From Thermoleophilia bacterium (lineage in GTDB: Bacteria; Actinomycetota; Thermoleophilia; RBG-16-64-13): a stretch of 64,000 nt of DNA. Below, piece after piece: positions 33,192 to 64,000 of the stretch. The stretch is taken from assembly GCA_027493445.1 (NCBI GenBank), contig JAOSKU010000001.1:1803936-1867935 (forward strand), in the 5' to 3' direction. Position 1 is the stretch's first letter. Each line of letters starts with the position of its first letter. The notes below the pieces were generated by a model. It was not told the DNA's origin. It ran no database searches and saw only the letters and a program-made list of their open reading frames with translations. Made by a program: the position numbers and the translations under genes.

Positions 33192-33374
33192 TAGACGGCC
33201 TCGACCCTGAGTTGCGCGCTCGGCTTGAGGAGGTCTACGGCGACCGGATGGTTCACCTGCAAATGGCTGCTGGCTTGGACGAGCCAACGGCACGGCGCAC
33301 CTAGGTGTCCGATGGGCCACGCCGCACGTGCACGATCGCGGCACCGTATCCTGCATATTCACTTGGTCAAGGAG

Positions 33375-33689
33375 TACATGGCCCGCAGGGAGGCCCAGGA
33401 CGTGGACGCCACCTCGGCGAGAGCGCTCCTGGGGTTGGCGGACTCCTGGGAGGATGACCGAGATGCCGGCAGGATCGCTCGAGCTATCAGAGCCGCCCGG
33501 CTGAGCTCACACCGGTCACCGGCCCCTGGAGATGTATCTCCCGATACCGACACCATCGTCTACCTGCTCAAAGGCCACCCGGAGGTACGACGGAATCTGG
33601 CCCTCCACCCCGATGACGTGGTGGGCACCAGCGCCATGACCCTCATGGAGAACTACCGGGCAGGGACGCCGCGAACTCCGCCGGCGTGA
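33375..33689 (+). pseudogene. Possible vapB C-terminus fused to truncated vapC N-terminus (remnant)
   Basis: ..ARALLGLADSWEDDRDAGRIARAIRAAR.. then ..DTDTIVYLLKGHPEVRRNL..VGTSAMTLMENYRAG. It ends where the convergent PIN gene begins. Low confidence. Confidence 0.3.
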
Positions 33690-34119
33690 GCGCCTCGCAC
33701 CACGGCGCGACGGCTTCCCGCAGACGTCGATCACCCGTGACCAGAACGGTCTCGGGTAAGGTCGTGAGAAGAGCGAGCACGTGCTCGTCTCCGGGCGCGA
33801 CCGGCCCAACACTCCCCGGCAACGATTCCCCCTCCTTCGCCCAAGGGGGCCCACCTGACGCCGGCGGCTCTCGGAGACTGGCATTTATGACCAGTTCCTC
33901 CAGGATGGCGTCCACGTCGGACTCCGTGAGTTGATGCCTATCTCTGATGGAAGGCCTGAGGAGTACGCGCCGGTACTCGGTGAGCAGCGCCTCAGAAAGC
34001 ACGAAGCGAACGGTCCCCGCCAACATAGCGTCCAAGATACTGCGAGTGGATGACGTGCCGGAACCCGCCAGTACACCGCTCACCACGACGTTCGTGTCAA
34101 AGAGCGTGAGTGGCATCAC
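33643..34119 (-). CDS. PIN-domain toxin
   Basis: MMPLTLFDTNVVVSGVLA... 158 aa. Confidence 0.75.
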   Translation of the reverse strand: MMPLTLFDTNVVVSGVLAGSGTSSTRSILDAMLAGTVRFVLSEALLTEYRRVLLRPSIRDRHQLTESDVDAILEELVINASLREPPASGGPPWAKEGESLPGSVGPVAPGDEHVLALLTTLPETVLVTGDRRLREAVAPWCEALTPAEFAASLPGSSP

Positions 34120-34358
34120 GTGCGCTTGGCACGCACCGCCGCGGTCTCGCGCAATGCAAGGTCCATCGCTTCCTCGTCGGTCATGCCGGAGCTGGCGCGC
34201 GCACGCGCCACCAGTTGACGCGCGCTTTCCCGAGAGCGGATGCCGGCCAGCTCGAGGCTCTCATCGACAATCGCTGTGATGGTGGTGCCGCGGCGGGCAG
34301 CAGCCTCCTTCAGCGCCCGTTGCCTCTCCTCGCTCAGCGTGATCGTCATCCTGGGCAT
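34116..34358 (-). CDS. Ribbon-helix-helix (CopG-like) antitoxin
   Basis: MPRMTITLSEERQRALKEAAARRGTTITAIVDESL. 4-nt overlap with the PIN gene. Confidence 0.7.
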   Translation of the reverse strand: MPRMTITLSEERQRALKEAAARRGTTITAIVDESLELAGIRSRESARQLVARARASSGMTDEEAMDLALRETAAVRAKRT

Positions 34359-34534
34359 GACACCCTCCTCGCACGCCGGTACTCAAGATGGGGCGGTGAC
34401 CGGCGAAATCTGAGTTGTTGATGCCTAAGCATATCGGTGCGTATACATATTAGCACCGCTGTCCAGCAGACGGACAAGTACGCTGACATCAACCGCGATC
34501 ATCGTGAGCCTTGATTGCAGCTGCGATGGCGGCC

Positions 34535-34970
34535 TCAGTCGAAGCGGACGACCTCCAAGCCCAAGCTCAGGGCAGCCGCCGCCATGACCCGGTCGGCAGT
34601 GGCCAGCACCTGGGTTCCGATGGCACGGGCCACGGCCAGGTGAAGGGTGTCGAGGCTGCGCAGTGGAGTCTGCGAGACCAGATCGAAGACCCCCGTTGCG
34701 GCTGCCAAGTGTCCATCCTCCAGCGGGTACCGCCTCAGAAAGCCATCCGTTACGTCCTGCTCCACGACCGCCCACACCCGCCCCCCCGACACTGCTGTTC
34801 AGACTGCCCTCGCGCACCCGGCGAGCGAGCAGCGACCGCATCTCGAGCAGGGTCAGGCTGCTGACAGCCACCGGTCCGACCTGCCGCAGGTAGGCCTCCA
34901 CGTCCTCGGAGCGCGCTTCGTTCAGGTACCACTTGGCCAGGGCGCTGGTATCCATGTAGACGGTGGTCAT
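34535..34970 (-). CDS. vapC: VapC PIN toxin, frameshifted near 34790 (N-half in ORF 34425-35057, C-half in ORF 34535-34792)
   Basis: MTTVYMDTSALAKWYLNE...LTLLEMRSLLARRVREG joined to ..LRSLDTLHLAVARAIGTQVLATADRVMAAAALSLGLEVVRF. Confidence 0.65.
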
Positions 34971-35019
34971 GGCCGGCCCGCGGCCGGGATCGAGGCAGCA
35001 GCCGCGGCCACCCTGGGTC

Positions 35020-35247
35020 TCACCCGTTGTCGCGGTCCTCGCGGATGAGGTTCTCACTAGGGACCTCGAGCCGTCTCATGGTCGAGCGTAGGTCTGCGTG
35101 AGAGGGCATGGGCCGCGTCCTCTCGAAGGGGACCATCCGGGCTATGGGGCGACCCCGCCGGGTGATGACCAGCTCGCCTTCACGCTGCACCAGTTCTTCA
35201 AGGCCCGGCAGTGCTCCCCGCATCTCTCGAATCGACACCCTGCGCAC
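35020..35247 (-). CDS. phd: Phd/YefM-family antitoxin
   Basis: VRRVSIREMRGALPGLEELVQREGELVITRRGRPIARMVPFE. GTG preceded by GGAGGTGAGG. Confidence 0.65.
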   Translation of the reverse strand: MRRVSIREMRGALPGLEELVQREGELVITRRGRPIARMVPFERTRPMPSHADLRSTMRRLEVPSENLIREDRDNG

Positions 35248-35251
35248 CGCC

Positions 35252-35562
35252 TCACCTCCGCGGTTGCCCTGTGACACATTTCGATTCGATTGTAGCACTT
35301 CCACCCTTCGGCTCTCGCGCAGAAGCCTCTTTCCCATCCCACGGCAAGGCTTCAACGTGCCCAGCAGCGGCCATACACCCTTGGTAGGACGCTGGGGCGG
35401 CCAGCGGATTGAGCTTGTTCAACGAAGAGGACGAACCGCCAGCTGCGACGGGCGCGCGATGAGGACCGGCCAAGCCGACGCTGGCCGTGGGGATCGCCTC
35501 ACGGTCGGAAGTTGCGAGGGGGATGTCGGCCAACGTCTTCATGGGTGCAGACTACCACGCGT
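35252..35562 (-). pseudogene. MNT 5' region remnant (conserved MKTLADIPLATSDREAI start shared with 51050-51229 and 55700-55800)
   Basis: The first 17 codons and about 50 nt of upstream sequence are conserved in three loci. The downstream sequence here does not continue as a nucleotidyltransferase. Confidence 0.35.
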
Positions 35563-35667
35563 CTCGCCATGATGCGGTCTCCTCATGATCTGCGCACATG
35601 GCGTAGTACAACCGGGCTCGCCCGGCCCGTGGATGCCGCGGGCCGGCGTCGCCGGAGGGCCTCATTA

Positions 35668-35870
35668 GAAGCGGACGACCTGGAGGCCCAAGCTTAGGCA
35701 GCTTGCGGCCAGGACCCGGTCGGCAGTGGCCAGCACCTAGGTTCCGATGGCACGGGCCACGACCAGGTGAAGGGCATCGAGGCTGCACAACGGAGCCTGC
35801 GGGACCAGATCGAAGACCCCCGTCGTGGCTGGCAGGTGTCCATCCTCCAGCGGGTGCCCGTCACAATCAC
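35668..35870 (-). pseudogene. Partial duplicate of vapC C-terminal half (copy of 34535-34715) with CAG to TAG nonsense codon
   Basis: ..SLDALHLVVARAIGT TAG VLATADRVLAASCLSLGLQVVRF. The nucleotide repeat with 34535-34720 is visible by eye. Confidence 0.5.
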
Positions 35871-36272: not shown

Positions 36273-36668
36273 TCACACTGCGCCGTCAGCAGGATCGGTG
36301 CGCGGTGACTCGAGGCGGCGCCGTACTGCGTCAACAAACGCCATGGCCTGCTCGACCGCCCACCTCGCATTGTCGAGGGTCACTTCATCGCCGGTATAGT
36401 CGGCGACCAGGCGGATCTCGGCGGCACGGTTCAGAGTCCTGCCGAGTTCGACAGGCAACAGTCCGGTCTTCACCACGCGCAGGCTGAAGGCGGAGATCAA
36501 GCCGCTGTGAGTCTTCGCCCCGGTCGCATCAACTGGTGCGCCCGACCAAATCAGCGCAGCCCCGGCGGCGTCGAACATGGCGTAGTACGCGCTGTTGCAG
36601 GCTCCGTCCACATCCCTCGCATCTAGAAGCAGCTTGGCGGACGAAGTGGCTCTCGACACCTTGTCCAT
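36273..36668 (-). CDS. HEPN-domain protein (toxin-like partner of MNT)
   Basis: ..NSAYYAMFDAAGAALIW..LVADYTGDEV.. HEPN fold motifs. Confidence 0.75.
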   Translation of the reverse strand: MDKVSRATSSAKLLLDARDVDGACNSAYYAMFDAAGAALIWSGAPVDATGAKTHSGLISAFSLRVVKTGLLPVELGRTLNRAAEIRLVADYTGDEVTLDNARWAVEQAMAFVDAVRRRLESPRTDPADGAV

Positions 36669-36682
36669 GAGGTCCGAAGGAT

Positions 36683-37066
36683 TCAGAGCCTGACTCCATC
36701 GCGATCGATGTTGCGCAGTAGCTCCGGGTTCGGGGAGCGTTCGGGATGCTCCCACTCCTCGTCCCAGATGGGGAGCGGTTGGATCAAGATGCCCGTCTCC
36801 AGAAGGACTTCGTAGGCGATGTCTGCCAACGCGAGCTTGGTGTCGAGAAAGTTGCCCCGAGGCCCTCGCAACAGAACCGCGATGTCCACGTCGCTGTCGG
36901 GCCGATGATCACCTCGCGCCTGGCTGCCGAAAAGGAGGGCGCCCACAAGATCGTACTGCTGCGCCGCCTTCGCGAGAAAGGCGCGGGCTGCCCGCTCAGT
37001 ATCGGCGTTGATTGTGGTCGCCTGCACGCTGGTCTCGCTATCGCGCTGATTGGTGATCGATTCCAT
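36683..37066 (-). CDS. mnt: MNT nucleotidyltransferase
   Basis: GALLFGSQARGDHRPDSDVDIAVLL. Confidence 0.8.
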   Translation of the reverse strand: MESITNQRDSETSVQATTINADTERAARAFLAKAAQQYDLVGALLFGSQARGDHRPDSDVDIAVLLRGPRGNFLDTKLALADIAYEVLLETGILIQPLPIWDEEWEHPERSPNPELLRNIDRDGVRL

Positions 37067-37408
37067 GACACCCCTATCTTCGAGAGACCAGGCGGCGGAG
37101 AAGAATGCGATCTCGCAGCCGAAGAGCGGGTGAGCACCACCTTTACCACCCTCACCAGGACGAATCCGGCCGCCAAGGCCATGGCGGCGGGAGGCGGCCG
37201 GGGAGCTACGCGAGCGGCACCAGGGCGAGGCGGTTTGAACGAAGTCCCGGCCTCAGCGACATCGGCGGCCACCAGCCCTTCAAAGCCGATAGCACGCCCG
37301 ACAAGTCGATCGGGTAGGCAGACAGCCGCACCTGCGCTTGGTTCGCGGCATGCGCAACCTACATCACGTGCGCTAAGATGGCTATGATAATAGCCATCTT
37401 CGAGGGAG

Positions 37409-37693
37409 ATGATCGTGGGTCGCGAGTACTCCATAGCCGAAGCGCGCAACCATCTCTCCCAGGTGGTCAGATTGGCGGAGCACGAGGGAGCAGTAGAGCT
37501 TACCCGCCGGGGAAAGCCGGTGGCGGTTGTGGTCTCGCGTGACGAGTTCCTGCGCCTGCAGACCCCCGCCGGTGAACCGTTCGGCTTCCTGGACAGGTTC
37601 CGCGACGAGCACGACGTCGACCACTGCGGTCTCGAACCCGATGACATGGCTGGACTCAGAGACCCCCACCCCGGCCGGACCGTCGCGCTGTGA
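37409..37693 (+). CDS. phd: Phd/YefM-family antitoxin (family Z)
   Basis: MIVGREYSIAEARNHLSQVVRLAEHEGAVELTRRGKPVAVVVSRDEF. Confidence 0.8.
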   Translation: MIVGREYSIAEARNHLSQVVRLAEHEGAVELTRRGKPVAVVVSRDEFLRLQTPAGEPFGFLDRFRDEHDVDHCGLEPDDMAGLRDPHPGRTVAL

Positions 37694-38121
37694 GGCCCTA
37701 CTTCCTTCTCGACACCTGCATCCTGTCCGAACCTGTCATGCGCCGGCCGAACGCGGACGTGATGGCGCGTATCCTCGAGCACCGGCACGAGGTGGCCACT
37801 GCAGTACCCGCCTGGCACGAGATCACCTACGGCTGCCGCCGCCTACCTCCGTCGCGGAAACGCACCCTCATCGAGGACTACCTGGCTGCGACCGCGTCAT
37901 CTGGGCTCCCAATACTGCCCTACGACACCGCCGCCGCCACCTGGCATGCGGCTGAACGCGCCCGCCTCGAACGTGCCGGCGCCCTTCCCTCCTTCGTCGA
38001 TGGCCAGATCGCGGCCGTGGCCCACAGCAACGATCTCGTGCTCGTCACACGCAACGTGACCGATTTCCAGAAGTTCGCCGGCCTCCGCGTGGAGAACTGG
38101 TTCGAGCCTTCAGAGAGCTGA
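37690..38121 (+). CDS. vapC: VapC PIN toxin (family Z)
   Basis: YFLLDTCILSEPVMRRPNADV...LVLVTRNVTDFQKFAGLRVENW. 4-nt overlap with phd. Confidence 0.85.
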   Translation: MRPYFLLDTCILSEPVMRRPNADVMARILEHRHEVATAVPAWHEITYGCRRLPPSRKRTLIEDYLAATASSGLPILPYDTAAATWHAAERARLERAGALPSFVDGQIAAVAHSNDLVLVTRNVTDFQKFAGLRVENWFEPSES

Positions 38122-38219
38122 GCGCTTCGAAGGCCCCGGTTCACACGGCGCCCAATCGCCGACACGCGGTATTCATCTGTACTCTGAGTCCTCCCGATGG
38201 AGAGAAGCGCCCGCTCATG

Positions 38220-38942
38220 ATGCAGCCCATGCTGCAGCGGGGCCGACCTCGGGGGCGGGGAGCTACGAGAGCGGCACCACGGCGAGGTCGGTTTGAGCGA
38301 AGTCCCGTCCCGGGCAGAGCAAGTGCTGGTCGGCCAGTTTGGCTACGGCGTAGCTCATGCAGTCCCGTAGTTCGGGGCCGCAGGATGCCGGACCCTGCCG
38401 AAGCGCAGGAACGCCTCCGTCGCTTCGTCCCAATGGGCGGCAGCGAAGGGCACCACTGCGATCTCGTACTCCTGAAGGAATCGAGCGAGCTTGGGGCGCG
38501 CGTCGCGATCGAAGCGGGCCGACAGCACGAGCGCGGCCTCGGTCAACGTGGGCGCCCCCACAGCCAAGGGCTCATCGCGATCGATGCGACCCTTCGTGCG
38601 CACCGTGCGGCAGATGGTGTGGGAGGACCAGGTCCTAGGAGGCCGTTGAAGAACGAAGCCCCGGCCGCCCTTCCGGCGCACGACGAGATCGACTTCGCGG
38701 TCGAGCACCTGCAGCAGAAGGAGGAGCTTGTCCACGGACCTACGGCAGTTGGTCGGGTCGAGCAGCCGGTAGAGCTGCGCGGGAGACGTCCCCAGCCGCC
38801 GAATTATCTCCCGCTTCGAGAGCGGACTCTCCGCGACGGCCCTCTCGGCCTCGAGGGCCAGGCGGTAGAGAAGGAAATCGCGTAGGTACGGGATCCGGAC
38901 GCGAGCCCATACCATCATGGAGCAGCCCACGTGCGTGGGCAT
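38220..38942 (-). pseudogene. Chimeric ORF: HTH-type N-terminal segment fused to the C-terminal two thirds of a family-X vapC, itself frameshifted
   Basis: ..SKREIIRRLGTSPAQLYRLLDPTNCRRSVDKLLLLLQVLDREVDLVV.. then ..EPLAVGAPTLTEAALVLSARFDRDARPKLARFLQEYEIAVVPFAAAHWDEATEAFLRFG. The C-terminal ..QTDLAVVPLS lies in another frame. Confidence 0.5.
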
Positions 38943-38971
38943 CGAGCGAGGTTGGGGCGGAAGGAGCCTGC

Positions 38972-39908
38972 TCAGGTTCCTCTAGCTTCCAATCGCTGTC
39001 GCAAGTTCTGCACTTTCCAGGCCATGACGGGGTCCATGGATGCCCGCTCGAGCACACCCGGATACTCGGCCAGCAGTAGCACGGGGCGATACACCGCGTC
39101 CTCACCGAGCAAGCGCATGAACTCCCGTTCGGCCTCGGAACTCGAGCTCAATGGAGAGAGCCACCGCGCCACCGCCTCAAGCATGACCACGTGGCTGGGC
39201 GCCTCATCAGCTCGAAGCATCGCGAACAAAGGGTCAATGAATTCAGGTGCCGGATGGCGGAAGCGTTCCAGCGCGACCACCGGGTCTGTCACGAACGGGA
39301 ACGGGTCCGATGTGCAGATCGCTCGGACCGCGAGCGCCCGAGCAAGCGGGTCCTCCAAGAAGTCCAACACTGTGACGGCCAGCCGGTAAAGGTCGTACAG
39401 GTCCCGCGCGGCCAGGCGCTCCATCATGGCCTTGATCTTTCCGGCCACGAGTTCTGGCAGCCGCAGCGCCGGAAATGAGATCGGCGGGTCCGCGAATTCA
39501 CATGTCCGGTTTTCCGGCTCCAACAAGGGCACGCGGGCAAGGTAGCTGACGTCCACCTTCACGTGGCTACCCGGGTACTTCACGCGGTAGGTCTGACCGC
39601 TGTGCTCGTCGTTCGTACTCTGGACAAGATACCCGAGTGCTCCCACAACATCGCGGCATATCCACCTCCGCCCGCATGGAGCGCATGCCTTTCGCATCGG
39701 CGGCGCCCACGAACATGAGGTCGATGTCGACCGATAGCCTTGGCGCACGATCATGAAAGACGTTGAGCGCCGTCCCGCCGTGTAGAACAAAGACATTGCC
39801 CAACATCGGGTCCTCCCTGAGCGCCGAGAGTACCTCGAGCAGGCGCTCGACTTTGTCAACAACAATGGGGGCGAATCCGATCGGTAGAGTGAGAATGGGC
39901 CGGGTCAT
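38972..39908 (-). CDS. abiEii: AbiEii/AbiGii-family nucleotidyltransferase toxin (type IV TA), frameshift near 39700
   Basis: NTase motif VFVLHGGTALNVFHDRAPRLSVDIDLMF in ORF 39567-40067. C-terminal ..KIKAMMERLAARDLYDLYRL in ORF 38972-39865. The start overlaps the abiEi stop (ATGA). Confidence 0.7.
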
Positions 39909-40714
39909 CCTCGAGTCCACTCGCGATACGGTAGATCGGCCGGAACGTAGAGACGCCAACGGGCAACGAATTCCCGTTTGGACTCGCCAATGGCGGGAAG
40001 GAGCCGATAGGTCCCCCTGCCGAGCAAATCGCGCATCTCCTCGAGCACGGATGTGTCGACGCGCCAACTGTCGGCGAACATCTCGAGTGTCCAGCCGGCG
40101 CGGGCAGCCAGCGTCGGAGAGCCCAGCAGTCGCGCGTAGGCCGCGACTCGCTCGGGCGACATCGATGTGAACCCGCCGACACTGCGTAGCAGTTCTTCGA
40201 GCCCTCCGGCAAGACTCGGGTCGCGAAGGCAGTCGACGAGCGTGCGCTCCTTGGTGCTCACCGGCACTATCGCCTGCCCCGCTCTTATGCGTGTCACGAA
40301 CCCGCTCAACGTAGCTGAAGATCCCGGCACCAGAGGCGGCGCTACGCGACGGAACCGATAGCCGCGTACCTCGAAGTCACGTATCTTGGTGACAGAGGTG
40401 AAATACACGGTCCGCAGGGGCGAATGCGCAACGCCGTGCGCCTCGAGGGCTGTGTGGTGAGTAAGGACGGCATCTTTGGCAGCCTTCGCGGCTACCAGGT
40501 AGACATTGGGGACCCGATCGCGATACACGCCAATATTCGATGCATACAGACCCCGCCTCACTCGATAGGCCGAACCCCGCGCCACAGCGTTTTGCAGGTT
40601 TGCATAGCGAGTGCGTTCTGATACCGTCGGATCGACGCTAGCCACGTACTCCTCGAGGGTGAACACTTCATGGTCCTCGAGGAAACGGAGCGTCGCCGAG
40701 GCCTTGGTGTTCAT
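39905..40714 (-). CDS. abiEi: AbiEi-family antitoxin/transcriptional regulator
   Basis: 269 aa COG5340-like protein immediately upstream of the AbiEii gene. The promoter has the ATACGTAT palindrome and a TATTATAAC -10 element close to the ATG. Confidence 0.75.
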   Translation of the reverse strand: MNTKASATLRFLEDHEVFTLEEYVASVDPTVSERTRYANLQNAVARGSAYRVRRGLYASNIGVYRDRVPNVYLVAAKAAKDAVLTHHTALEAHGVAHSPLRTVYFTSVTKIRDFEVRGYRFRRVAPPLVPGSSATLSGFVTRIRAGQAIVPVSTKERTLVDCLRDPSLAGGLEELLRSVGGFTSMSPERVAAYARLLGSPTLAARAGWTLEMFADSWRVDTSVLEEMRDLLGRGTYRLLPAIGESKREFVARWRLYVPADLPYREWTRG

Positions 40715-40827
40715 AGCGCGGTTATAATACGTATATTCTTGTGCATTACGTGCCCATCATAACACCAGAACAGCCAACAAGCGAGATTGCTCCTCCGGCC
40801 CTCTCGTTTCATGACTACCAAGGCGCC

Positions 40828-41113
40828 CCTCTTCCTTCTCGACACCTGCATCCTGTCCGAACCTGTCATGCGCCGGCCGAACGCGGACGTGATGGCGCGT
40901 ATCCTCGAGCACCGGCACGAGGTGGCCACTGCAGTACCCGCCTGGCACGAGATCACCTACGGCTGCCGCCGCCTACCTCCGTCGCGGAAACGCACCCTCA
41001 TCGAGGACTACCTGGCTGCGACCGCGTCATCTGGGCTCCCAATACTGCCCTACGACACCGCCGCCGCCACCTGGCATGCGGCTGAACGCGCCCGCCTCGA
41101 ACGTGCCGGCGCC
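40828..41113 (+). repeat. Perfect about 286-nt direct duplicate of vapC(Z) 37700-37985; embedded in truncated ORF 40787-41152
   Basis: The two copies are identical base for base as far as I can align by eye. The copy ends inside the gene (..ERAGAL then unrelated TTHAAPRAVCL stop). The upstream context differs from copy 1. Confidence 0.8.
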
Positions 41114-41318
41114 CTCACCACCCACGCCGCGCCCAGGGCGGTTTGCTTGTAGCGCACCTTGACGTCGCACCAAGTGGGGAAGCAGACGAGTTCCCGATAT
41201 CGCCAAAGCTCGGTGAGACGAAGTGAAACTCACCCCCGAGACGGCTGGATGTGGCGCGGGCGCTCGGGTAGGAGGTCGGCCGGCACCGCAAGATCGGGCG
41301 AAGACCGGCCCGGCGCGG

Positions 41319-41666
41319 TCAGCGGTCTGCGCGCTGTCTCCTGAGAGCGGCGGCGACTCCAAAGGCGTGGAAGTAGCCGTGCCAGCTACGGGCGGTCGAA
41401 CCGAACCGGTTCTCCCCCAGGAAATAGTCGAGGAGGACCTCCCTGAGGCGGGTCAACTCCTTCAGGCGATGCCGATGCCGCGGATCTCCGATCGTCAGCT
41501 CGAGGAGCTCCAGCGCCCGCTCGAGTGCTTTCTGGCTGTAATCGGGGTTGCATTTCGCCGCCCAATTGAGCGCCCGCTCGACTTCGCTCCCCACGTTGGC
41601 CAACTGCTCGAGGAGGGTGAAGTCCCGCCACCGGCCAGCGGCCAACTCTGGATGCTGTACGCTCAT
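41319..41666 (-). CDS. Conserved hypothetical protein (115 aa), downstream partner of a translationally coupled pair
   Basis: MSVQHPELAAGRWRDFTLLEQLANVGSEVERALNW... No family confidently recognised. ATGA overlap with the upstream ORF. Confidence 0.5.
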   Translation of the reverse strand: MSVQHPELAAGRWRDFTLLEQLANVGSEVERALNWAAKCNPDYSQKALERALELLELTIGDPRHRHRLKELTRLREVLLDYFLGENRFGSTARSWHGYFHAFGVAAALRRQRADR

Positions 41667-42004: not shown

Positions 42005-42026
42005 GGCCCGAATATAGCAGGCATGG

Positions 42027-54345: not shown

Positions 54346-54371
54346 ACACAACTCCATGTGAGAAGTAGTAC

Positions 54372-55191: not shown

Positions 55192-55358
55192 CAGGCTGTC
55201 GGGAAATGACGCTTCGCCGCCGGAGTGCGCTGGGTACGCGCCAGGCAAGGACGCAAGGAGCGCTCGTAGCAGCGCTACGGGCGCGACTGAGGACAACGCA
55301 TGGCGCCGCCCAGTGCGCTCCGGCGGCCGAGGTTTCTTTTTCCGACAGCCTCCTGGCA
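55188..55358. repeat. Long imperfect palindrome (element C), centre CGTAGCAGCGCTACG, between convergent higA and MNT
   Basis: This is the reverse-complement relative of element B. Confidence 0.6.
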
Positions 55359-55800: not shown

Positions 55801-55805
55801 GCAGA

Positions 55806-56348
55806 CTACCATGCGTATCGCCGTGGTGCGCCTCGAGGCCGAAGACTCCCGACCACCGTCTCGAAAGGAGGCAGGTCGGGAACGAGAGGTTCAAGCCACT
55901 GGTTCCAAGTGCTCTGGACGTGAGCAAGCATGACAGGCTGAAAGAAGTCTTCCGCACCCATGAACGTCACCTGACGGACGGCACATTTCGCGGCCACGAA
56001 CGACGCAAAGGCTGCGAAGTCCATCTGATCTCCGTAAGAGCCGAGGATGCGCCATAGATCATAGAAATCCCGGGCACGCGACCGACTCCAGCCCCGCTCA
56101 TTCAGCATTTCGACGTGCTGAAGGATAGCTCGAAGCTTCTCGGCGACAATCTCCTCCATTGAATACACGCGTACCGTCGCAGTGAGAGCCTCACCGTACT
56201 CGTGGAGTATCGCCCGGGACGGTGTCGGCTTGAACACCTGTTCGTCCATTGAGATCTCGACCATAACATGGGTGTGTGGTTGCCGGTGCCATGGGAAACG
56301 GGCTCTGACCGAGAAGGCTTCTTCAAGCCGACTGCGCAGGGGTCTCAT
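55806..56348 (-). pseudogene. AbiEii toxin lacking N-terminal nucleotidyltransferase core
   Basis: Only the C-terminal ..YSMEEIVAEKLRAILQ..RARDFYDLWRIL.. region is present. The GGTAL...DIDF motif is absent. Confidence 0.6.
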
Positions 56349-56965
56349 GACCCCGTTCTTCCCGGCAGATTCACCCGGATCATCCAGCGACGGTTGTATG
56401 GACCGCGACGGGGCCCGCTTGGGTCCAGATTCCGATAGCCGACGATAGGCAGCCCGGCGAGAGCGCGCAGCTTGTTCGGCAGAACCCCTGATTCTTCGAG
56501 CACCCAGCCCAGCCGCTTGGCCGTCGCCACATCAAGCCTGAGGGCATAGTCGATGATCCTGGAGAGGTCCAGGCGCTCGCCGCGCACCTCAAAAGCGTGA
56601 AGGCTCTCTGAAAAGTCACCGCAGTATTGAGGCCTTGACAACCCATCGAGCAGCGTGCGTTCGGGATCGGTTATCGCAACGCGAGCCTCGCCGATCCAGA
56701 CCTGTTCCGTCCCGAAGAACCATTCGCGCTTGGTCTGTACGAACTGGTAGATCGTGCCGGCAACGGAAAACCCGTCCGCCCCGCCGGCATCCCGGTGACC
56801 TCGAAAACGAGGTACAGGGACGTCCAACGGGGTCAGGACGAACACTCTCCGGGGAATCTGTTCGGTGAGGCCGTGATGGTGCATGGCCGACCAATGGCTG
56901 ATGGCGCTTGGACGAGCCAGGGCCATGGCTATTTCGAACTCATGAACAGGCGCAACACCCGGCAT
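56345..56965 (-). CDS. abiEi: AbiEi-family antitoxin/regulator
   Basis: 206 aa. ATGA overlap with the truncated abiEii. Confidence 0.7.
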   Translation of the reverse strand: MPGVAPVHEFEIAMALARPSAISHWSAMHHHGLTEQIPRRVFVLTPLDVPVPRFRGHRDAGGADGFSVAGTIYQFVQTKREWFFGTEQVWIGEARVAITDPERTLLDGLSRPQYCGDFSESLHAFEVRGERLDLSRIIDYALRLDVATAKRLGWVLEESGVLPNKLRALAGLPIVGYRNLDPSGPRRGPYNRRWMIRVNLPGRTGS

Positions 56966-57375: not shown

Positions 57376-58191
57376 CTACGTGCTCAGCAACCCGGCCGCA
57401 ATTTCAAAGGCCTCGTCGAAACCCAGCGAGTCAACCACCAGGTAGGCGAGGGACGACTCCCAACTGGCGCGGTACTCGGCTCGCCGGGCGCGGAACCGGG
57501 CGGCCGCCCCCTCCAGAACCAAAGCCTTGCGTTTGGTCTTGCGCGGCAACGCCTCGAGCGCGGCACCTGTGTCCGCTCCTCGGCGCACCAATTGCGCGAT
57601 GTCATAGACGTCACGGGCGATGGCGTAGCGTCGCTGTCCGCCAACCGCGCGCAGCTTCTCTGCGAGAATCTCCTCGAGCGCGTAGCATTCGACCGACGAC
57701 ACCCCCAGGCCGGCCGCGTCGTCGTACTCGTGCATGAGCGCGCGGTTGACCGCGTCGAACACGAGCTCCTCATCGGCACTCAAATGGAACTGCATGTTGG
57801 GCGGATTCGGCGTGCGCAAAGCCCCGCGGTAGGGCACCTTGATCTCGATTGACTCGCGACCGTGCTCATCGTTTTGGACGATCGTCCTCGCGTCTTCCAT
57901 GAGCAATCGAATGCCCGCACTGCCTGCCCTCGGCGCTGCGTTCTGCACCAGCGATAGCGCAACGGCAGGAGTCAAGCGACCCGCCACCGTGAAGTCCAAG
58001 TCCTCCGAGAAGCGGTAGTCGCCGAAGTGGCACTTGCGAAGGCAGGTCCCGCCCTTGAACACCCAGCGCGCTGACGAGAGATCCGGCGACAGGGCCCACA
58101 AGACAACCCCTAGCGCATGGTCGCGATCGATCACGGCGGGGTCCACGCCCAGCCTGCGGGCAAGGGACTTGACGGAGGCCTCTGGTATCAC
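57376..58191 (-). CDS. abiEii: AbiEii nucleotidyltransferase toxin (intact)
   Basis: VFKGGTCLRKCHFGDYRFSEDLDFT...YALEEILAEKLRA..ARDVYDI. Confidence 0.8.
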   Translation of the reverse strand: MIPEASVKSLARRLGVDPAVIDRDHALGVVLWALSPDLSSARWVFKGGTCLRKCHFGDYRFSEDLDFTVAGRLTPAVALSLVQNAAPRAGSAGIRLLMEDARTIVQNDEHGRESIEIKVPYRGALRTPNPPNMQFHLSADEELVFDAVNRALMHEYDDAAGLGVSSVECYALEEILAEKLRAVGGQRRYAIARDVYDIAQLVRRGADTGAALEALPRKTKRKALVLEGAAARFRARRAEYRASWESSLAYLVVDSLGFDEAFEIAAGLLST

Positions 58192-59018
58192 GCCCGGTCA
58201 TCTCCGTCGAATCCGCCCGCGTTCACCTGCAGGTTCCACCTACGCAGTGTTCGCCCGGTATGGGGACCGCCTCGCTCGAGCGAGGTGAAGCCCGCACCGA
58301 TCCGCGCCCGCCATGAGTCGAGCCACTCCTCCGCTCCCGGAAGTGCCGCGTTCTCCGCCAGAAAACCCAGGCGCTTGGGCACTGTCCCGCTGCTGAAACG
58401 CGTCATGTACGCACTGAGCTTCTGGAGGTCAAGCTGCGACCACGCCGCACGCAATGCGGGCATGACCTCGCCGATGCCCCCCGCGAGATCGGGGCGATCC
58501 ATGACGTCGACGATCGTGCGCTCGGGATCCGTCACCCGAACACGCAGGCCCCCACGCCATTCCTCGCTGATACCGAAAACCCTGACGGGCTTCAACGTGA
58601 CGAACTTGTAGGGCACGCCCAAGATGATCGCATGCGACTTGAACCGGCGCACCGGAGTCACGAAGAACTGCGTGCGTGGCAACTGTGTGGTCCATCCCCA
58701 GTGACGGACGGCGGTCCAGTAGGCCGCGCCCCCCTCCGGCACGAGGAGGCTGCCGATCACGAGGGGGTCCTCGCTCCAGTCACGATCGGTCCCAGCCGCG
58801 AGCGGAACGAGCATGTACTTGCCCCGCTCCAGTCGTTCGAGCCATCCTTTGCGCTCCAGTTGGGCCAAGGAGTTGCGTGCGTATTGCCCACCGCCCCAGA
58901 ACCCAGCCGCCTGCTCGAACGAGAAAACGTCCCGCCCTGCTCCGGCCATGGTAGCAAGGAACTCGGCCTCTCGCGGTCCAAGTTCCGTTATAGTTCGAGC
59001 CATGTTAATAACCTCCAA
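58188..59018 (-). CDS. abiEi: AbiEi antitoxin (intact)
   Basis: 276 aa. RBS GGAGG before the ATG. Confidence 0.8.
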   Translation of the reverse strand: MEVINMARTITELGPREAEFLATMAGAGRDVFSFEQAAGFWGGGQYARNSLAQLERKGWLERLERGKYMLVPLAAGTDRDWSEDPLVIGSLLVPEGGAAYWTAVRHWGWTTQLPRTQFFVTPVRRFKSHAIILGVPYKFVTLKPVRVFGISEEWRGGLRVRVTDPERTIVDVMDRPDLAGGIGEVMPALRAAWSQLDLQKLSAYMTRFSSGTVPKRLGFLAENAALPGAEEWLDSWRARIGAGFTSLERGGPHTGRTLRRWNLQVNAGGFDGDDRA

Positions 59019-59139
59019 ACAGTTATCTTCATGACGCGTACTATACTACAACGTCAGGGCCTGCCGTGCCCATCGACGACCGAAGCAGCCTCGAGCCCGG
59101 CCGAGGCATGATCCTCAACGCCGGCGGCGCGGGTGGTCA

Positions 59140-60330
59140 CGAGGGTGGCCGGCGACGAGTTGGTGACCTCGGATCGTGCACAGAGGGCGTATCTGAGAGG
59201 TTCCCGGCGCCGCGGTAATCGCTCGGCCTTGCGCTCCAGTCCGCGTATGAGCCTGCCTCCGTCTTCAGACCGGGTCCATTTGGCTTCCCCTACCAGCGTG
59301 GCCTCCCGAGCTCGAGCGTTCAGAACGACGGCGTCGATCGATGACGATGAGACCTCTCAGATCCTCCCGGGCCAGCTGCGACTTTACCGCCCCCGGTGCC
59401 ACTCCCAGGCGTCACGCACTATGTGCTCGAGTGACCCGCGCTCGGGGCGCCAGCCGAGCACTTCCCTGGCCCGCTCATTGGAGGCGATGAGGGTGGCCGG
59501 ATCGCCCGCCCGTCTTGGGCCCATGGTGATCTTGACTTCTCGCCCCGTGACCTCAGCACAGGTGCGCAGCACCTCCAGGCTGGAGAATCCGCGTCCGTTT
59601 CCCAGGTTGAACACTGCGCCCCGCCCGAGCCCGCCTGGACGCCAGCCTCCACACCCTCTGCCCCGCCCCCACCGCCCAGCCACTCTAACCCCAGCCTATG
59701 CGCCTCCGCCAGATCGAGCACGTGGACGAAAGTCGCGCACGTAGGTGCCATCGGGCGTGGGATAGTCGCTGCCGTTGACCTCGAACTCGGCCTTAACTCC
59801 GCCCATAGCCTGCAGGACCCGGGGAATGATGTCCGTCTCAGGTTCGTGCCTCTCCCCCAGAAAGCCGTCCGGCTAGGCCCCGGCCACGTTGAAGTAGCGG
59901 AACCTCACGGTGCGCAAGCCGTGCAGGAGTCCATACCAGTCGAGCAACTGCTCGAACATGAGCTTGGAGCCCCCATAGGCGTTCACGGGAAGAAGGCGCG
60001 CATCTTCGGGAATGGGTACGGCCTCGGACTCTCCGTAGACCGCCGCTGTGGACGAGAACACCAGTCCCCGCACCCCATGCCTCACCATGGCTTCCAGCAT
60101 GACCAAAGGAGCGGCCACGTTGTTCTGGAAGGAGCGTCCGGGGTGGGCCTGCGACTCGGCTACCTCGATGTAGCCGGCAAGGTGCATGACGGCGTCCATG
60201 CCGGGCAGGATCTGGTCGAGGAGCTCGGCGTCACCTACCCTGCCGACGACCAGCGTAGCCCGCGGGTCGACCGCCTCGGCGAGCCGGCGCCGCCGGTGAC
60301 GAGGAAGTTCATACGGTTAACCGTAGCAAG
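59140..60330 (-). pseudogene. galE: Decayed UDP-glucose 4-epimerase (galE) gene preceded by short DUF4143-ATPase fragment
   Basis: Segments MNFLVTGGAG.., ..MDAVMHLAGYIEVAESQ..LVFSSTAAVYGE..NAYGGSK.., ..[17 protein letters not shown].. and ..FNLGNGRGFSSLEVL..GWRPERGSL are spread over three frames, with an internal deletion after GGAG. Confidence 0.6.
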
Positions 60331-60796
60331 TGAGCGACGCGACAGGTACCACATGTTGATTTCCAGGCGCACCGACCAGTTGTTAGGGTACCGGCGGTCG
60401 AGCCGCAGGTGTCGTCGCGGGTCGAAGATACGGCAACTGCTTGAATGGGTCTTCGTCTAGCCCATTTTGATCCCCTGGATGAGTCGATGATGACCTCCAA
60501 ACGTTAGGAGTCGCACGCCCATGAAGTCGTAGGCTGGCGGCACGAAACCGTCGAGTTCCAAGGCCCGGGACCGACCTCAGGCGCGGTGGTTACCGAAACT
60601 CATTCCGCGGGGAAAGCCAGTTTCCACTATGCACCGCCCCGGCCATCCTGACGCCGGGGCAGCAGGGAGCCCATCGGACTTTGCTTGCACGGGACGGGGC
60701 CCATCCCCGGCCGTCGGGATACGTGTTCATTTAGAGCAGAAGATCGCCAATTCCGAAAGGAGTGTCTCTAAGAGGGCAATGCTCCAATAGAGAAGA

Positions 60797-60835: not shown

Positions 60836-61660
60836 ATGGAACGACCGGTTCGCACTCTATCCAAGCGGGAGGCGGAGCTCGTCAGCTGGCTTGAAGCCGA
60901 GCGGCGGCTGAGCATCAGCCTGCCCGAGGTGAGGCGCACTCTGGGCTGGTCGGACTCCGTGGCTCGCAATACACTGTCACGGCTAGCCAAGAAGGGGTGG
61001 CTCCGTCGCACCGCCCTTGGCAGGTACGAGGCCGTTCTCGCCGAAACGGGCGGGTGGTCTGTCCCCAATCCCTGGGCGGCGCTGAGCACTTGGGGGCAGC
61101 GGTACTACGTCGGATTCAAGTCGGCCGCATATGAGCATGGTCTCACAGCCGATCGTCCGGGCAGTGTTCAGACGTGTGTGCCGACGGGCGCCCGCAGGCC
61201 GCTTTCGTGGGGCGACATTCCCATCGTCCTCATCTACCTCCCCAAGTTCGACTCGGCCGGGACGCAGTACAGGAAGCTGCATCAATTCGAGGTTGAGATC
61301 GCGTCGCCAGAGAAGATATTGGTCGACGGGGCTAGCCTTCCAGGACGCATGGGGGGTGTGCTCGGGCTCGCTCGGATCGTTGACCGCGCCGCGAACCAAG
61401 TCGACTGGGCGACCGTAGTTCAGCTCACGACTGCGTCACCCGGCGGGCGGGTGAGCCTGCGGCGGCTCGCCGCCTTGCTGGAGATCCTCGGCCGGGAGGT
61501 GCCGGATCCCCTGGCTAATGGGGCGACGGCGCGGCTGGGTGAGTCGGCACTCTTCCTCGGCGCGAGGCGAACGTACGGCGCACGCGGCGAGCGGCTGTCC
61601 CGCTGGCAGGTGATCGTCAATGTCGATCCGGCTGCGGTCCTCGAGGAGCTGCGACGCTGA
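60836..61660 (+). CDS. abiEi: AbiEi antitoxin
   Basis: 274 aa. LSKREAELVSWLEAERRLSISLPEV.. winged-helix N-domain. Confidence 0.75.
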   Translation: MERPVRTLSKREAELVSWLEAERRLSISLPEVRRTLGWSDSVARNTLSRLAKKGWLRRTALGRYEAVLAETGGWSVPNPWAALSTWGQRYYVGFKSAAYEHGLTADRPGSVQTCVPTGARRPLSWGDIPIVLIYLPKFDSAGTQYRKLHQFEVEIASPEKILVDGASLPGRMGGVLGLARIVDRAANQVDWATVVQLTTASPGGRVSLRRLAALLEILGREVPDPLANGATARLGESALFLGARRTYGARGERLSRWQVIVNVDPAAVLEELRR

Positions 61661-62257
61661 TGGTGCCGCTGGCCATCGTCCGACAGTACGCCGCCGGGCA
61701 GCAAATCAGCGTTGATGTGGCTGACCAGGAAATCGTCCTCCACTAGTGCGTCTTTGGCCACACCGGCCGCTTCTCGAAGGACATCGACTTCAGCGGTCAC
61801 GTCGCGTACGAGCACGAGAACGGCGCCGCCTCCACGGCCTCGACCCGTACGAGATGATCGCCGAGAAGATCATGGCCTGTAACCGTCGACGCGGCGGGTC
61901 CGCGAAGGATGTCATGACATGCTTCTCTGGTCCGAACGCCCTTTCAGTCATGACCTCGTCCGTCGCGTGGCTGTTCTGAAGGCGTGGACAGATCAGAGGA
62001 AGGCGCCGGCGTATGATCCCGACACCTTCGTGGCTGCGGTCGTGCCGGAAAACTACCGCTGGGAAGACCTGGAAGGACTGGTGCCTCGCCGCCTTCAGTC
62101 GAACCCTGAAGGCATCTGCGCCGCGGTCCGGAACAGGTTCGCTTTCCTGACCGCTAGCACCGAGCAGGAAGGCGTGCTCCTGGCTGATCAGGCATCGCAT
62201 CGCGAGGAGGACCTGTTCGGACAGCTCCGAGCCGAAGCGCGGTACTGGTCAGAATGA
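61657..62257 (+). pseudogene. AbiEii toxin pseudogene (in-frame TAG after 28 codons, deletion, frameshifts)
   Basis: MVPLAIVRQYAAGQQISVDVADQEIVLH stop, then ..FGHTGRFSKDIDFSGH.., ..DPYEMIAEKIMA.. and ..LKAWTDQRKAPAYDPDTF.. in different frames. Confidence 0.6.
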
Positions 62258-62945
62258 CTCACTGCACCGCCCCTTCGATCATAATGAGGTAGCGCGTCAT
62301 CTCCTCCGGCACCGGTGTAGAAGACGGTGGACTTGCCCTCGCTGAATGGCTGAAGGAGCATGGTCTTGCCGACGCGCCGCCGGCCCCACACAAGCGCTAC
62401 GCCCTGCCCAGGTGAGCCCCACCATTGTTCCAGAGCGGCCAATTCGTCCCGCCGGTCGACGAAGTCGTCCATGTCCTGAATTGGTGCACTTCCCTGTCGG
62501 TGCTTTGCGGGCTGCTGGGTCGGCCGCCCGTCTCTGTCACTGGCGAACGCAGCGGGGCGCCGAGGTCGATGCCGAGCCGCCGTCCTTGTCTACAGGGGGA
62601 CGGAAGTGGTCCCCTTGGGGTCGCGTGTGGTCGCCCTACCGTGGGAGTTCTTGGCCCGAGGGATCTCGCGCTAGCGGCCCTCCCACCGTCCGCAGCCGCA
62701 CGCAGTCTCCGCAGTCCCACGTGGTACCGTACGGGAAAGGTGGAGATGTATTGCCGGCACCAGACAAGGCTTTGCTCCTCGGAGGTGCGACCGAGGATGA
62801 GGTAGTTCTGACCGAGGCGGCGGTCTACCAGGTTGCGAAGCAGGGGAAACAGATCGGGCTGACGTTGGATCTCGTCGATGACGATGAGACCTCTCAGATC
62901 CTCCAGGGCAAGTTGCGACTTTACCGCCCCCGGTGCCACTCCCAA
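62188..62945 (-). pseudogene. Fragments of AAA ATPases (Arch_ATPase-like N-terminus and DUF4143-type with internal deletion)
   Basis: [16 protein letters not shown].. and ..LIVIDEIQRQPDLFPLLRNLVDRRLGQNYLILG..EEQSLVWCRQYISTF. Confidence 0.5.
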
Positions 62946-63745
62946 GCGTCACGCAGTATCTCCTCGAGCGATCCTCGCTCCGGCCGCCAGCCCAGCACTT
63001 CCCTAGCTCGCTCATTGGAGGCGATGAGGGTGGCCGGACCGCCCGCCCGTCTTGGGCCCATGGTGATCTTGATTTCTCGCCCCGTGACCTCAGCACAGGT
63101 GTGCAGCACCTCCAGGTTGGAGAATCCGCGCCCATTTCCCAGGCTGAACACAGCGCCCCCACCCGAGCCCGCATGAGCGCCGGCCTCCGCACCTCCTGCC
63201 CCGCTCCCACCGCCCAACCACTCCAGCCCCAGCCGATGCGCCTCGGCCAGATCGAGCCGTGGACGAAAGTCGCGCACGCAGGTGCGATCCGGCGTGGGGT
63301 AGTCGCTGCCGTAGACCTCCAGCTCGGCCTTACCCCCGGCCATGGCCTGCAGGATCCGGGGAATGATGTGCGTCTCAGGTTCGTGCCTCTCCCCCCGGGA
63401 GCCGTCCGGCCAGGGCCCGGCCACGTTGAAGTAGCGGAACCGAACGGTGCGCAAGCCGTGCAGGAGTCCATACCAGTCGAACAACTGCTCGAACGTGAGC
63501 TTGGCGGCCCCATAGGCGTTCATGGGAAGAAGGCGCGCGTCTTCCTTGATGGGTATGGCCACCGGCTCTCCGTAGGCCGCCGCGGTGGACGAGAGCACCG
63601 TCCCTGCACCCCCTGGCGCACCATGGCCTCCAGCATGACCAAAGGAGCGGCCACGTTGTTCTGGAAGTAGCGTCCGGGGTGGGCCTGCGACTCGGCTACC
63701 TCGATGTAGCCGGCGAGGTGCATGACTGAGTCCATGTCTGTCAAG
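62921..63745 (-). pseudogene. galE: Second, 5'-truncated galE copy with Gly/Ala-rich insertion
   Basis: ..MDSVMHLAGYIEVAESQAHPGRYFQNNVAAPLVMLEAMVRQG.. plus ..LSSTAAAYGEPVAIPIKEDARLLPMNAYGAAKLTFEQ..DYPTPDRTCVRDF..GGGSGAGGAEAGAHAGSGGGAVFSLGNGRGFSNLEVL.. The nucleotide repeat with 59330-59700 is visible. Confidence 0.6.
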
Positions 63746-64000
63746 GCCGGTTCAAATCTGACCCCTTGCTGGCGGAGCAGGTGCCCGAAGGAACCGGGGC
63801 TCCTCCTTTCAGTGCCCATCCCCCGTAGCATCAGTCGCCTCCCCAATACGGCGGTCCTGAGCATTGCCCACCTTCGCTCGCGGCTTGGCTGCAGGGCGAT
63901 ACCTCCCTAGGCATGCCCCACTGAGCCTCCGGAGCTTGGCTGACTCGGAGGTTGAACCACCTTTCTTCCGAAGCGCAAGAAGTCAATGGCAAACACGAGG

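Follow-up and report, generated by a model that had tools for sequence, protein, structure and literature searches.

The question raised by this locus is how a large number of toxin-antitoxin (TA) genes, many of them broken, came to lie side by side in one short part of a chromosome. The window, by which we mean the whole stretch of 64,000 nucleotides that was analyzed (positions 1,803,936 to 1,867,935 of contig JAOSKU010000001.1), comes from an uncultured soil-type Thermoleophilia bacterium (Actinomycetota), for which the nearest reference genomes are those of uncultured Actinomycetota and Gaiellales metagenome-assembled genomes (MAGs). Between 1 and 33 kb the window carries polysaccharide-synthesis genes, an M6 peptidase, ETF, acyl-CoA dehydrogenase and URO-D genes, a two-component system and a permease gene. 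The part from 33.2 to 64 kb is referred to here as the block. An earlier note on this DNA had taken the block for a hot spot in which TA cassettes are gained, duplicated and eroded. Our analyses indicate that it is very probably a strain-variable chromosomal TA spot, that is, a zone of accretion and erosion next to the permease gene.

Toxin-antitoxin content of the block

We analyzed the block by a six-frame Pfam scan, targeted scans, and PADLOC on ten selected proteins. Gene calls were taken from short-read contigs of the same organism (L001, L002, L006, L007 to L009, and others), repeats were found by self-BLASTN of the window, and fragments were located by tblastn with intact proteins. A control Pfam scan of the 150 frames that had been set aside by a codon-position GC filter added only AbiEii, PIN, AAA_14 and ATPase_2 fragments.

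We found ten intact two-gene modules: eight of the VapBC type, one MNT/HEPN pair and one AbiEi/AbiEii pair. There were also approximately 18 remnants that were truncated, chimeric, nonsense-mutated or reduced to footprints. Together these make about 28 loci or remnants within 31 kb, and approximately half are broken. The earlier note had counted at least 20 type II/IV TA loci, roughly half of them decayed, and both statements hold, with the proviso that one apparently broken vapC (34535-35057) is intact in short reads. Pfam and PADLOC profiles back its TA assignments except for HigB. TA and AbiE modules, their remnants, ATPases, insertion sequences (IS) and like features make up approximately 83% of the block, with genes on both strands, and the window contains 27 internal repeats of 75-99% identity. 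The intact modules are as follows.

33643-34358, minus strand: RHH-like antitoxin (34116-34358) and PIN_3 toxin (33643-34119); PIN_3 E=1.5e-11, L002 gene calls.
34535-35355, minus strand: Phd antitoxin (35019-35355) and VapC PIN toxin (34535-35057); Phd match, PIN match in L002.
36273-37066, minus strand: MNT (36683-37066) and HEPN (36273-36755); NTP_transf_2 E=4e-9, HEPN E=1e-10, L002 gene calls.
37409-38121, plus strand: Phd antitoxin (37409-37693) and VapC PIN toxin (37690-38121); Phd E=3e-11, PIN E=1e-10.
42294-43023, plus strand: DUF6364 antitoxin-like gene and PIN_3 toxin; DUF6364 E=3e-12, PIN_3 E=2e-21, L006 gene call.
43077-43741, minus strand: Rv0623-like antitoxin (43469-43741) and VapC PIN toxin (43077-43472); PIN E=3e-26, PSK_trans_fac E=5e-15.
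46746-47373, minus strand: RHH_1 antitoxin (47140-47373) and PIN toxin (46746-47156); Pfam, L001 gene calls.
48358-49129, minus strand: AbrB/MazE-fold antitoxin and PIN toxin; PIN E=9e-19.
53633-54357, minus strand: AbrB/MazE-fold antitoxin (54073-54357) and PIN toxin (53633-54121); MazE_antitoxin E=3e-11, PIN E=6e-11.
57376-59018, minus strand: AbiE pair 3, AbiEi (58188-59018) and AbiEii (57376-58191), overlapping by 4 nt.

Eight full-length PIN or PIN_3 matches scored above the Pfam cut-offs, in VapBC toxins of about 130-170 residues. The eight toxins have no mutual BLAST similarity and so represent more than four sequence families. Their antitoxins are of the Phd, RHH, AbrB/MazE, Rv0623-like (PSK_trans_fac) and DUF6364 families. 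The claim that the VapBC modules come from at least four sequence families with several antitoxin folds is therefore sound, with more than four toxin and at least four antitoxin families, and the HEPN/MNT type that had been listed is represented by the intact pair at 36273-37066. An antitoxin gene was identified upstream of the toxin by profile match in seven of the eight VapBC pairs; the eighth (34116-34358) is RHH-like by inspection only. Antitoxin and toxin genes overlap by 4 nt at 34116/34119, 37690/37693 and 43469/43472, and there was no intact toxin gene in the block without an adjacent antitoxin gene. The pair at 33643-34358 is 99-100% identical in a conspecific strain. Both genes of AbiE pair 3 gave full-length PADLOC matches (AbiEii, E=4e-56; AbiEi, E=7e-61) and correspond to gene calls on L007 to L009.

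Decay falls on the toxin genes

The toxin gene is damaged or missing in every decayed module. The antitoxin-side genes that survive are the AbiEi genes of pairs 1 and 4 and an XRE antitoxin-like gene; one MNT gene also remains. The decayed loci, and the IS elements found among them, are as follows.

35252-35542, minus strand: open reading frame (ORF) starting with an MNT 5' footprint (homology 35483-35576); repeat and translation.
35601-35858, minus strand: vapC 3' fragment, the last ~65 codons; 87.6% identical to 34531-34731.
37087-37252, strand not given: vapC 3'-end footprint of the Rv0623-partnered family; 75% to 42964-43120, 88-90% to 18002-18069 and 38253-38310.
38253-38942, minus strand: chimeric ORF, HTH_37-like N-terminus and VapC residues 24-131; PIN 22-88 of 120 at 19.8 bits, below the cut-off; weak HTH_37.
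38972-40714, minus strand: AbiE pair 1, AbiEi intact (39905-40714), AbiEii frameshifted; PADLOC AbiEi E=6e-56.
40825-41115, plus strand: vapC 5' fragment, the first 97 codons; PIN 2-82 of 120.
42030-42281, minus strand: mazF fragment, residues 14-97, without a start codon and without mazE; PemK 14-96 of 109.
43970-44110, plus strand: PIN_3 N-terminal fragment, 47 codons; 87.5% identical to 42541-42652, tblastn 70%.
47745-48335, plus strand: IS1595 transposase fragment, C-terminal half only; DDE_Tnp_IS1595 75-153 of 153.
49185-49446, minus strand: deletion fusion of a Phd C-terminus and a VapC C-terminus; self-BLASTN and tblastn.
49457-49552, minus strand: HEPN 5' fragment, cut by the IS256 insertion and truncated on its 3' side; 93% identical to 54484-54553, reconstructed by removing the IS in silico.
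49553-50971, plus strand: complete IS256-family element; Transposase_mut E=2e-104, 26-nt inverted repeats.
51147-51224, minus strand: MNT 5' footprint; self-BLASTN repeat.
51505-51767, minus strand: second mazEF piece, mazF residues 59-89 (51505-51597) and the first 40 mazE codons (51648-51767).
54372-54572, minus strand: HEPN N-terminal fragment; repeats with 49457-49526 and 36564-36611.
54567-55191, plus strand: XRE-type helix-turn-helix (HTH) antitoxin-like gene (54820-55191) after a short RelE/HigB-like remnant (54567-54809); HTH_3 E=1e-9.
55384-55830, minus strand: orphan MNT (55384-55671) with no HEPN partner, and an MNT 5' footprint (55737-55830); NTP_transf_2 E=1e-9.
55806-56965, minus strand: AbiE pair 2, both genes N-terminally truncated, AbiEii 180 residues and AbiEi about 200 residues; Pfam, L007 gene calls.
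60836-62254, plus strand: AbiE pair 4, AbiEi intact (60836-61660), AbiEii decayed; AbiEi_1 E=2e-12.

The four AbiEi/AbiEii pairs announced in the earlier note are present, one intact and three damaged, and it is the toxin gene that is damaged in three of the four. AbiEii of pair 1 matches only positions 94-305 of the 306-position profile, its nucleotidyltransferase N-terminus lying in another frame, and the pair is identical in short-read contigs L094 and L095. AbiEii of pair 4 combines an in-frame stop, an internal deletion and frameshifts, and is 100% identical in short-read contigs L097 and L098.

The individual lesions that the earlier note had picked out are also real. The vapC fragment at 35.7 kb has an in-frame TAG (35737-35739) where alignment with its paralogue gives CAG, and the region is identical in L002. 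The fusion reported at 38.2-38.9 kb does join an HTH segment to VapC residues 24-131; its DNA is 89-91% identical to the vapC copies at 43 and 18 kb, and a G-run around 38364 has lost 1 nt. The fusion reported at 49.25 kb consists of two abutting segments, one (49370-49446) matching 35077-35153 and the other (49237-49371) matching 34528-34662, which are 415 bp apart in the intact copy. HEPN start fragments were found at both of the proposed places, 49.45 and 54.45 kb, and the mazF pieces were recovered as two loci. The first of these is 93% identical to the intact PemK of the conspecific strain and identical in short-read L006. The second is 97.9% identical to 42054-42147 and matches the intact 82-residue MazE and 97-residue PemK of that strain. 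There was no intact MazEF within the block, only the two pieces.

HigBA fared less well: its XRE-type gene (54820-55191) has HTH_3 support, with NCBIfam antitoxin families below their cut-offs, and the HigB-like ORF (54567-54809) had no match in Pfam, NCBIfam or PDB sequences. The orphan MNT region (55384-55830) is identical in L007. The three MNT 5' footprints (35483-35576, 51147-51224 and 55737-55830) share 86-91% identity with one another. The vapC 5' fragment at 40825-41115 is a direct repeat of 37695-37985 (99.3% over 291 bp), and its left junction is confirmed by L094.

IS256 and IS1595 genes had both been noted in the block; the first is a complete element and the second a fragment. The IS256 element is flanked by a perfect 8-bp target duplication, TGATGACG, inside a HEPN gene, and its insertion there is a recent event. 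Its transposase reads in three frames, and of the two frame changes one coincides with a GGGGG run (50194).

Comparison with relatives

We compared the window with a metagenome contig from a related species (L011; 82% nucleotide identity) and with a conspecific strain (L100; 98.98% identity over 28066-34614). An island should be absent or variable in close relatives, as the earlier note had reasoned, and this is what we found. L011 is syntenic with window positions 22579-33181 only. Homology ends at the stop codon of the permease gene, beyond which L011 carries sigH, yacP, rlmB, cysS, gltX, ispF, ispD, yacL, disA and radA, and the block is absent. The left synteny break, at 22579, is the edge of a smaller TA arm at 17.8-22.3 kb. 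The conspecific strain has approximately 5.1 kb of TA material after the permease gene, compared with at least 29 kb in the window. Next come transporter genes and genes for fatty-acid oxidation, the latter including a cluster of 3-hydroxyacyl-CoA dehydrogenase, thiolase and enoyl-CoA hydratase genes. Four anchors in the island of this strain are collinear with the window (37244-37985, 41116-42265, 51599-51825 and 53347-53435).

The differences between the two strains could be resolved into separate events. The conspecific strain has an intact mazE (82 residues) and mazF/PemK (97 residues) beside the DUF5674 gene, whereas the corresponding pieces lie 9.3 kb apart in the window. Because mazEF is intact in that strain and split in the window, a 9.3-kb insertion in the window's lineage is likely. 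The insert carries three intact VapBC pairs, an ATPase gene, the IS1595 fragment and IS256, and a fourth VapBC pair (42294-43023) straddles its left edge. Conversely, the conspecific strain lacks 37986-40824 (2.8 kb), which is exactly the segment between the 99.3%-identical 291-bp vapC repeats. From the sequences, this absence fits a deletion by homologous recombination between the repeats. The same strain also carries 1.8 kb not shared with the window, in which there are a Phd-like gene with a partner gene and a chimeric vapC remnant, and therefore both lineages have changed. In total the two strains are separated by at least five insertions or deletions, of which two can be given a likely direction and cause.

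The Phd-like gene, of 94 residues, overlaps a gene of 183 residues that was not assigned to a family (positions 12333-13168 of the conspecific strain). Both are absent from the window, and they may be another TA pair.

A panel of TA proteins from the window gave no tblastn match in the loci of 13 family-level relatives, in all of which the disA-sigH cluster is conserved, or in L011 (at most 21 kb each). Given this lack of TA homologues near the sigH cluster, the individual cassettes cannot be dated from those genomes. A PIN fragment is present near the cluster in one family-level relative. Searching reference genomes with the permease gave no result.

Another family-level relative (L022) has a phage-integrase fragment (15313-15885) directly downstream of sigH, so that the sigH neighborhood may also be an integration site in that lineage. 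In L011, sigH directly adjoins the permease gene, at the place where the window has the island.

The smaller arm and paralogous modules

The earlier note had pointed to a smaller arm of the same kind at 17.8-22.3 kb, and its content agrees with that description.

18002-19950, minus strand: two intact VapBC pairs, Rv0623-like/PIN (18022-18713) and AbrB/PIN (19183-19936); ORFs, MazE_antitoxin match.
20001-20348, minus strand: MNT; Pfam.
20424-20798, plus strand: AAA_14 N-terminal fragment; Pfam.
20504-21334, minus strand: NERD; Pfam.
21426-21947, minus strand: GNAT TacT-like gene; Pfam.
21948-22301, minus strand: TacA; TacA1 gene call on L002.

The arm thus has two VapBC pairs, an MNT gene, an AAA_14 fragment, a NERD gene and a TacAT-like pair. 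The NERD gene had been placed among the genes at 33-64 kb, which was an error, as it occurs only in the arm.

Both VapBC pairs of the arm have paralogues in the block. Positions 43057-43813 match 18002-18760 (89% over 759 bp; ratio of nonsynonymous to synonymous substitution, dN/dS, 0.09-0.12), and positions 48344-49125 match 19168-19950 (90% over 783 bp; toxin dN/dS 0.3). For the intact paralogue pairs, synonymous divergence (dS) was 0.24-0.43 and dN/dS 0.09-0.30, indicating that both copies have for a while been under purifying selection. At this divergence the sequences fit an old duplication and separate acquisition equally well, and the word "duplicated" is uncertain for these pairs. Homology between paralogous modules stops sharply, approximately 20 bp past the stop codon at one end and 50-70 bp ahead of the start codon at the other, and no recombinase or flanking repeat was present at these homology ends.

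TA pairs also occur within the polysaccharide-synthesis cluster: an intact MazEF (10084-10684) and an MNT (Polbeta) gene with HepT, within 14915-15900. These pairs outside the block and arm suggest that the genome is rich in TA systems overall.

Reliability of the window sequence

Apparent decay could be produced by sequencing errors, and we compared the window with short-read contigs from five sequencing runs. There were zero mismatches, and the only differences were of 1-2 bases in the length of C/G runs. Such indels were found at 10 sites in about 56 kb compared, nine in the first 28 kb and one in the block; the named positions are 1637, 5324, 13623, 15962, 16866, 17242, 23933, 27487 and 34781. 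As they are confined to homopolymer runs, the window probably comes from an (unpolished) long-read assembly. The indels account for two false fusions, DegT-PglD (4362-6188) and ETF-URO-D (22579-24717), and for one false vapC pseudogene. The latter (34535-35057) owes its split solely to one additional C in the C-run at 34781. tblastn joined its two frames at 34782-34786, and L002 encodes an intact PIN protein of 173 residues.

Approximately 19 of the 30.8 kb of the block was reproduced by short-read contigs at 100% identity, except for the one homopolymer indel. The lesions confirmed in this way include the TAG vapC, the frameshifted AbiEii of pair 1, the truncated AbiE pair 2 and the decayed AbiEii of pair 4.

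Proposed explanation and alternatives

We propose that operon-sized TA and AbiE modules would arrive singly, often inside earlier arrivals. They would persist for a time, as the toxin would make loss of the module costly if the pair is expressed. The toxin gene would be the first to be inactivated, whether by a nonsense mutation, a frameshift, the arrival of an IS, an illegitimate deletion or homologous recombination between TA repeats, and orphan antitoxins and footprints would remain. The events observed were one insertion that split mazEF, one deletion bounded by direct repeats, and one recent IS256 insertion. As regards the hot spot of gain, duplication and erosion that had been claimed, gain and erosion are borne out by the comparison with L011 and L100, and duplication is uncertain at the dS values given above. 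Judging by the families they belong to, the toxins are presumably active and addictive, and the AbiE and PDC-S01 genes presumably act in phage defence. A defence or anti-deletion function for the block as a whole is something we can only infer.

Several points weigh against this explanation. Toxin activity, addiction and phage defence are all read from family membership. The right border and its flanking gene lie beyond the end of the window, and the comparison concerns the left flank alone. The absence of an integrase, a tRNA gene, an attC site and a composition shift leaves the vehicle of arrival unmarked. Approximately 11.7 kb of the block is outside the short-read contigs that were fetched (37.7-38.6, 41.1-41.7, 42.6-45.2, 47.5-51.6, 53.5-55.3, 59.4-60.1 and 62.9-64.0 kb). 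Look-ups of the exact proteins encoded at 43077-43472 and 62921-63598 yielded no contig. Junctions in these parts, including the right end of the 9.3-kb insert, depend on the window assembly by itself. Single-base frameshifts in the IS256 transposase, at the chimera site (38364) and in two galE-like copies may be assembly errors.

The block might instead be a dedicated anti-phage defence island under selection, in which TA, AbiE and PDC-S01 genes act jointly and decay reflects an arms race. It does contain four AbiE loci and two DUF4143 ATPases that match PDC-S01, and the arm contains a NERD gene. The presence of DUF4143 ATPases in the block had been predicted correctly.

45279-46421, minus strand: AAA_14/DUF4143 ATPase, PDC-S01 match; Pfam, PADLOC E=2e-50, identical in L001.
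51936-53084, minus strand: second AAA_14/DUF4143 ATPase, PDC-S01 match; Pfam, PADLOC E=1e-78, identical in L010.

TA systems are known in general to defend by abortive infection (see also PMC7725324). We nevertheless consider a dedicated defence island unlikely. Three of the four AbiEii toxins are inactivated, PDC-S01 is a PADLOC candidate defence gene and has candidate status only, and the Pfam scans of the block found no restriction-modification, CRISPR or other defence families, PADLOC having covered the ten selected proteins. In addition, TA genes rarely cluster with defence systems in Photorhabdus (PMC13617665), and the conspecific strain manages without most of the block.

We find it still less probable that the block is the remnant of one large mobile element (an integrative and conjugative element, prophage or plasmid) or an integron-like cassette array, acquired as a whole and not piecemeal. 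The border where the block is missing in L011 is sharp, the units that occur twice are operon-sized with abrupt ends of homology, and L022 has its integrase fragment next to sigH, all of which such an origin would explain. However, neither the six-frame Pfam scans nor the control scan of set-aside frames detected an integrase in the block, which had no relaxase or phage genes either, and there were no tRNA genes or Rfam matches in the window. Self-BLAST of the window revealed no recurrent inter-cassette repeat resembling attC sites. Both strands carry genes, GC content is unshifted (0.62-0.66 in the block, the same as in the flanks, with a window G+C of about 65%), and the IS1595 fragment was the sole match of the block in a plasmid search. 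The conspecific strain, moreover, differs by several separate insertions and deletions and not by one event. A chromosomal integron in particular was rejected, as there is no integrase, no recurrent inter-cassette repeat and no uniform gene orientation.

Finally, the homopolymer indels with their false fusions and broken vapC, and the fact that short-read contigs break at every repeat, could suggest an assembly artefact, in which collapsed or mis-joined repeats or long-read errors mimic decay and a single long island, but this is very improbable, as most of the block matches independent short-read contigs of several runs, the decay is mostly structural (truncations, fusions and in-frame stops) and appears in those contigs also, and the conspecific strain shares collinear anchors along 34-53 kb.

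Relation to known systems

Accretion and erosion of TA modules at a strain-variable spot has a close parallel in Photorhabdus. There, TA clusters lie in discrete accessory intervals between core genes, with high turnover between strains and independent acquisitions at one location, and pseudogenization affects the toxin alone or both genes while the TA neighborhood is not conserved (Belot et al. 2026, Mol Biol Evol, PMC13617665). The intervals are small, and 14 co-localized pairs are reported in a whole genome (PMC13617665). The block resembles these spots in its clustering, its turnover and its pattern of acquisition and erosion. It differs in belonging to the Actinomycetota and not the Gammaproteobacteria, in its much higher density (~28 loci or remnants in 31 kb), and in being known from sequence comparison alone.

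Other parallels are less complete. Chromosomal integrons such as the Vibrio superintegron gather numerous small TA operons into a single array, for which a stabilizing role has been proposed; the block, unlike these, has no integron integrase and no attC sites, and its cassettes are nested and lie on both strands. Defence islands were reportedly described by Makarova et al. in 2011, and AbiE is said to have been characterized as a type IV TA system by Dy et al. in 2014. Like a defence island, the block is a variable region where TA genes have AbiEi/AbiEii genes and candidate defence ATPases as neighbors. It is unlike one in that VapBC-type TA modules dominate and most AbiE toxins are inactivated. 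The VapBC loci of M. tuberculosis are dispersed and mostly intact, whereas those found here are packed into one block and about half decayed. Both belong to actinobacteria and include many VapBC modules with diverse antitoxins, Rv0623-like ones among them, and M. tuberculosis TA loci are likewise associated with genomic islands (Ramage et al. 2009, PMC2781298).

The block is thus a very dense but otherwise ordinary case of a known fast-turnover region. What is new is the different phylum, the extreme local density, and the resolution of single events between two strains. It provides an unusually clear natural record of the gain and loss of chromosomal TA modules, in which the IS256 insertion with its intact target duplication is a third dated event beside the mazEF insertion and the deletion between vapC repeats. 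With it, the acquisition-and-erosion model known from Photorhabdus reaches an uncultured lineage of actinobacteria, at far higher density, and the expected asymmetry becomes visible: toxins are lost first and antitoxins persist. The ten intact pairs and one conserved DUF5674 pair are candidates for functional testing. The false pseudogene also shows that long-read MAGs should be polished before pseudogenes are counted.

Other genes and repeats

The remaining features of the block are as follows.

33312-33689, plus strand: orphan ORF of 125 residues; L002 gene call, 96% to its homologue in the conspecific strain.
41319-42004, minus strand: DUF5674 gene (41663-42004) and a four-helix partner of 115 residues (41319-41666), overlapping by 4 nt.
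44234-44683, minus strand: S-layer-homology (SLH) domain protein fragment; SLH E=3e-11.
59057-59400, minus strand: C-terminal ATPase remnant of the DUF4143/ATPase_2 kind; translation, by inspection.
59387-60456, minus strand: galE-like epimerase copy 1, full length, in several frames; Epimerase and GDP_Man_Dehyd matches.
62400-62948, minus strand: AAA_14/DUF4143 ATPase fragment; tblastn 45% to the ATPase at 51936, AAA_14 E=7.5e-4.
62875-63906, minus strand: galE-like epimerase copy 2, 5'-truncated, with one frameshift; 90% to copy 1 over 864 bp.

The DUF5674 gene and its partner are kept as a pair in the conspecific strain (10001-10686) and in an Aminicenantes contig (L102, 3001-3704; 71% and 67% identity). 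There are more than 8000 homologues of DUF5674 and about 1600 of the partner. The partner (115-122 residues) had no match among Pfam, NCBIfam or PADLOC families or PDB sequences, and DUF5674 had no fold match in the PDB. There is a slim chance that the pair represents an undescribed TA-like or defence module, or that TA operons move as units of ~770 bp by a mechanism that is itself undescribed.

The orphan ORF at 33312-33689 had no match in Pfam, NCBIfam or PDB sequences; by inspection only, its C-terminal part resembles the first PIN strand. The 864-bp segment shared by the two galE-like copies, consisting of an ATPase fragment and the 3' part of the galE-like gene, occurs at 59338-60200 and 62875-63736 (90% identity), flanking AbiE pair 4.

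Two other kinds of repeat were seen. A GC-rich repeat of ~90 nt with the potential to form a long hairpin occurs at 17856-17944 and 53347-53435 and in the conspecific strain at 8688-8776, which are the left edge of the arm, a site inside the block, and the right border of the short island, respectively. A terminator, a REP-like element and a border sequence are all conceivable, and the number of copies (three) is too small for a covariation test. The second repeat resembles a terminator, with a T-run behind a GC hairpin, and is present at 45154-45216, 53470-53619 (minus strand) and 55205-55354, with 84-98% identity among the window copies. As it is also found in the housekeeping part of the conspecific contig (2310-2480), this repeat is dispersed in the genome and is no particular property of the island.

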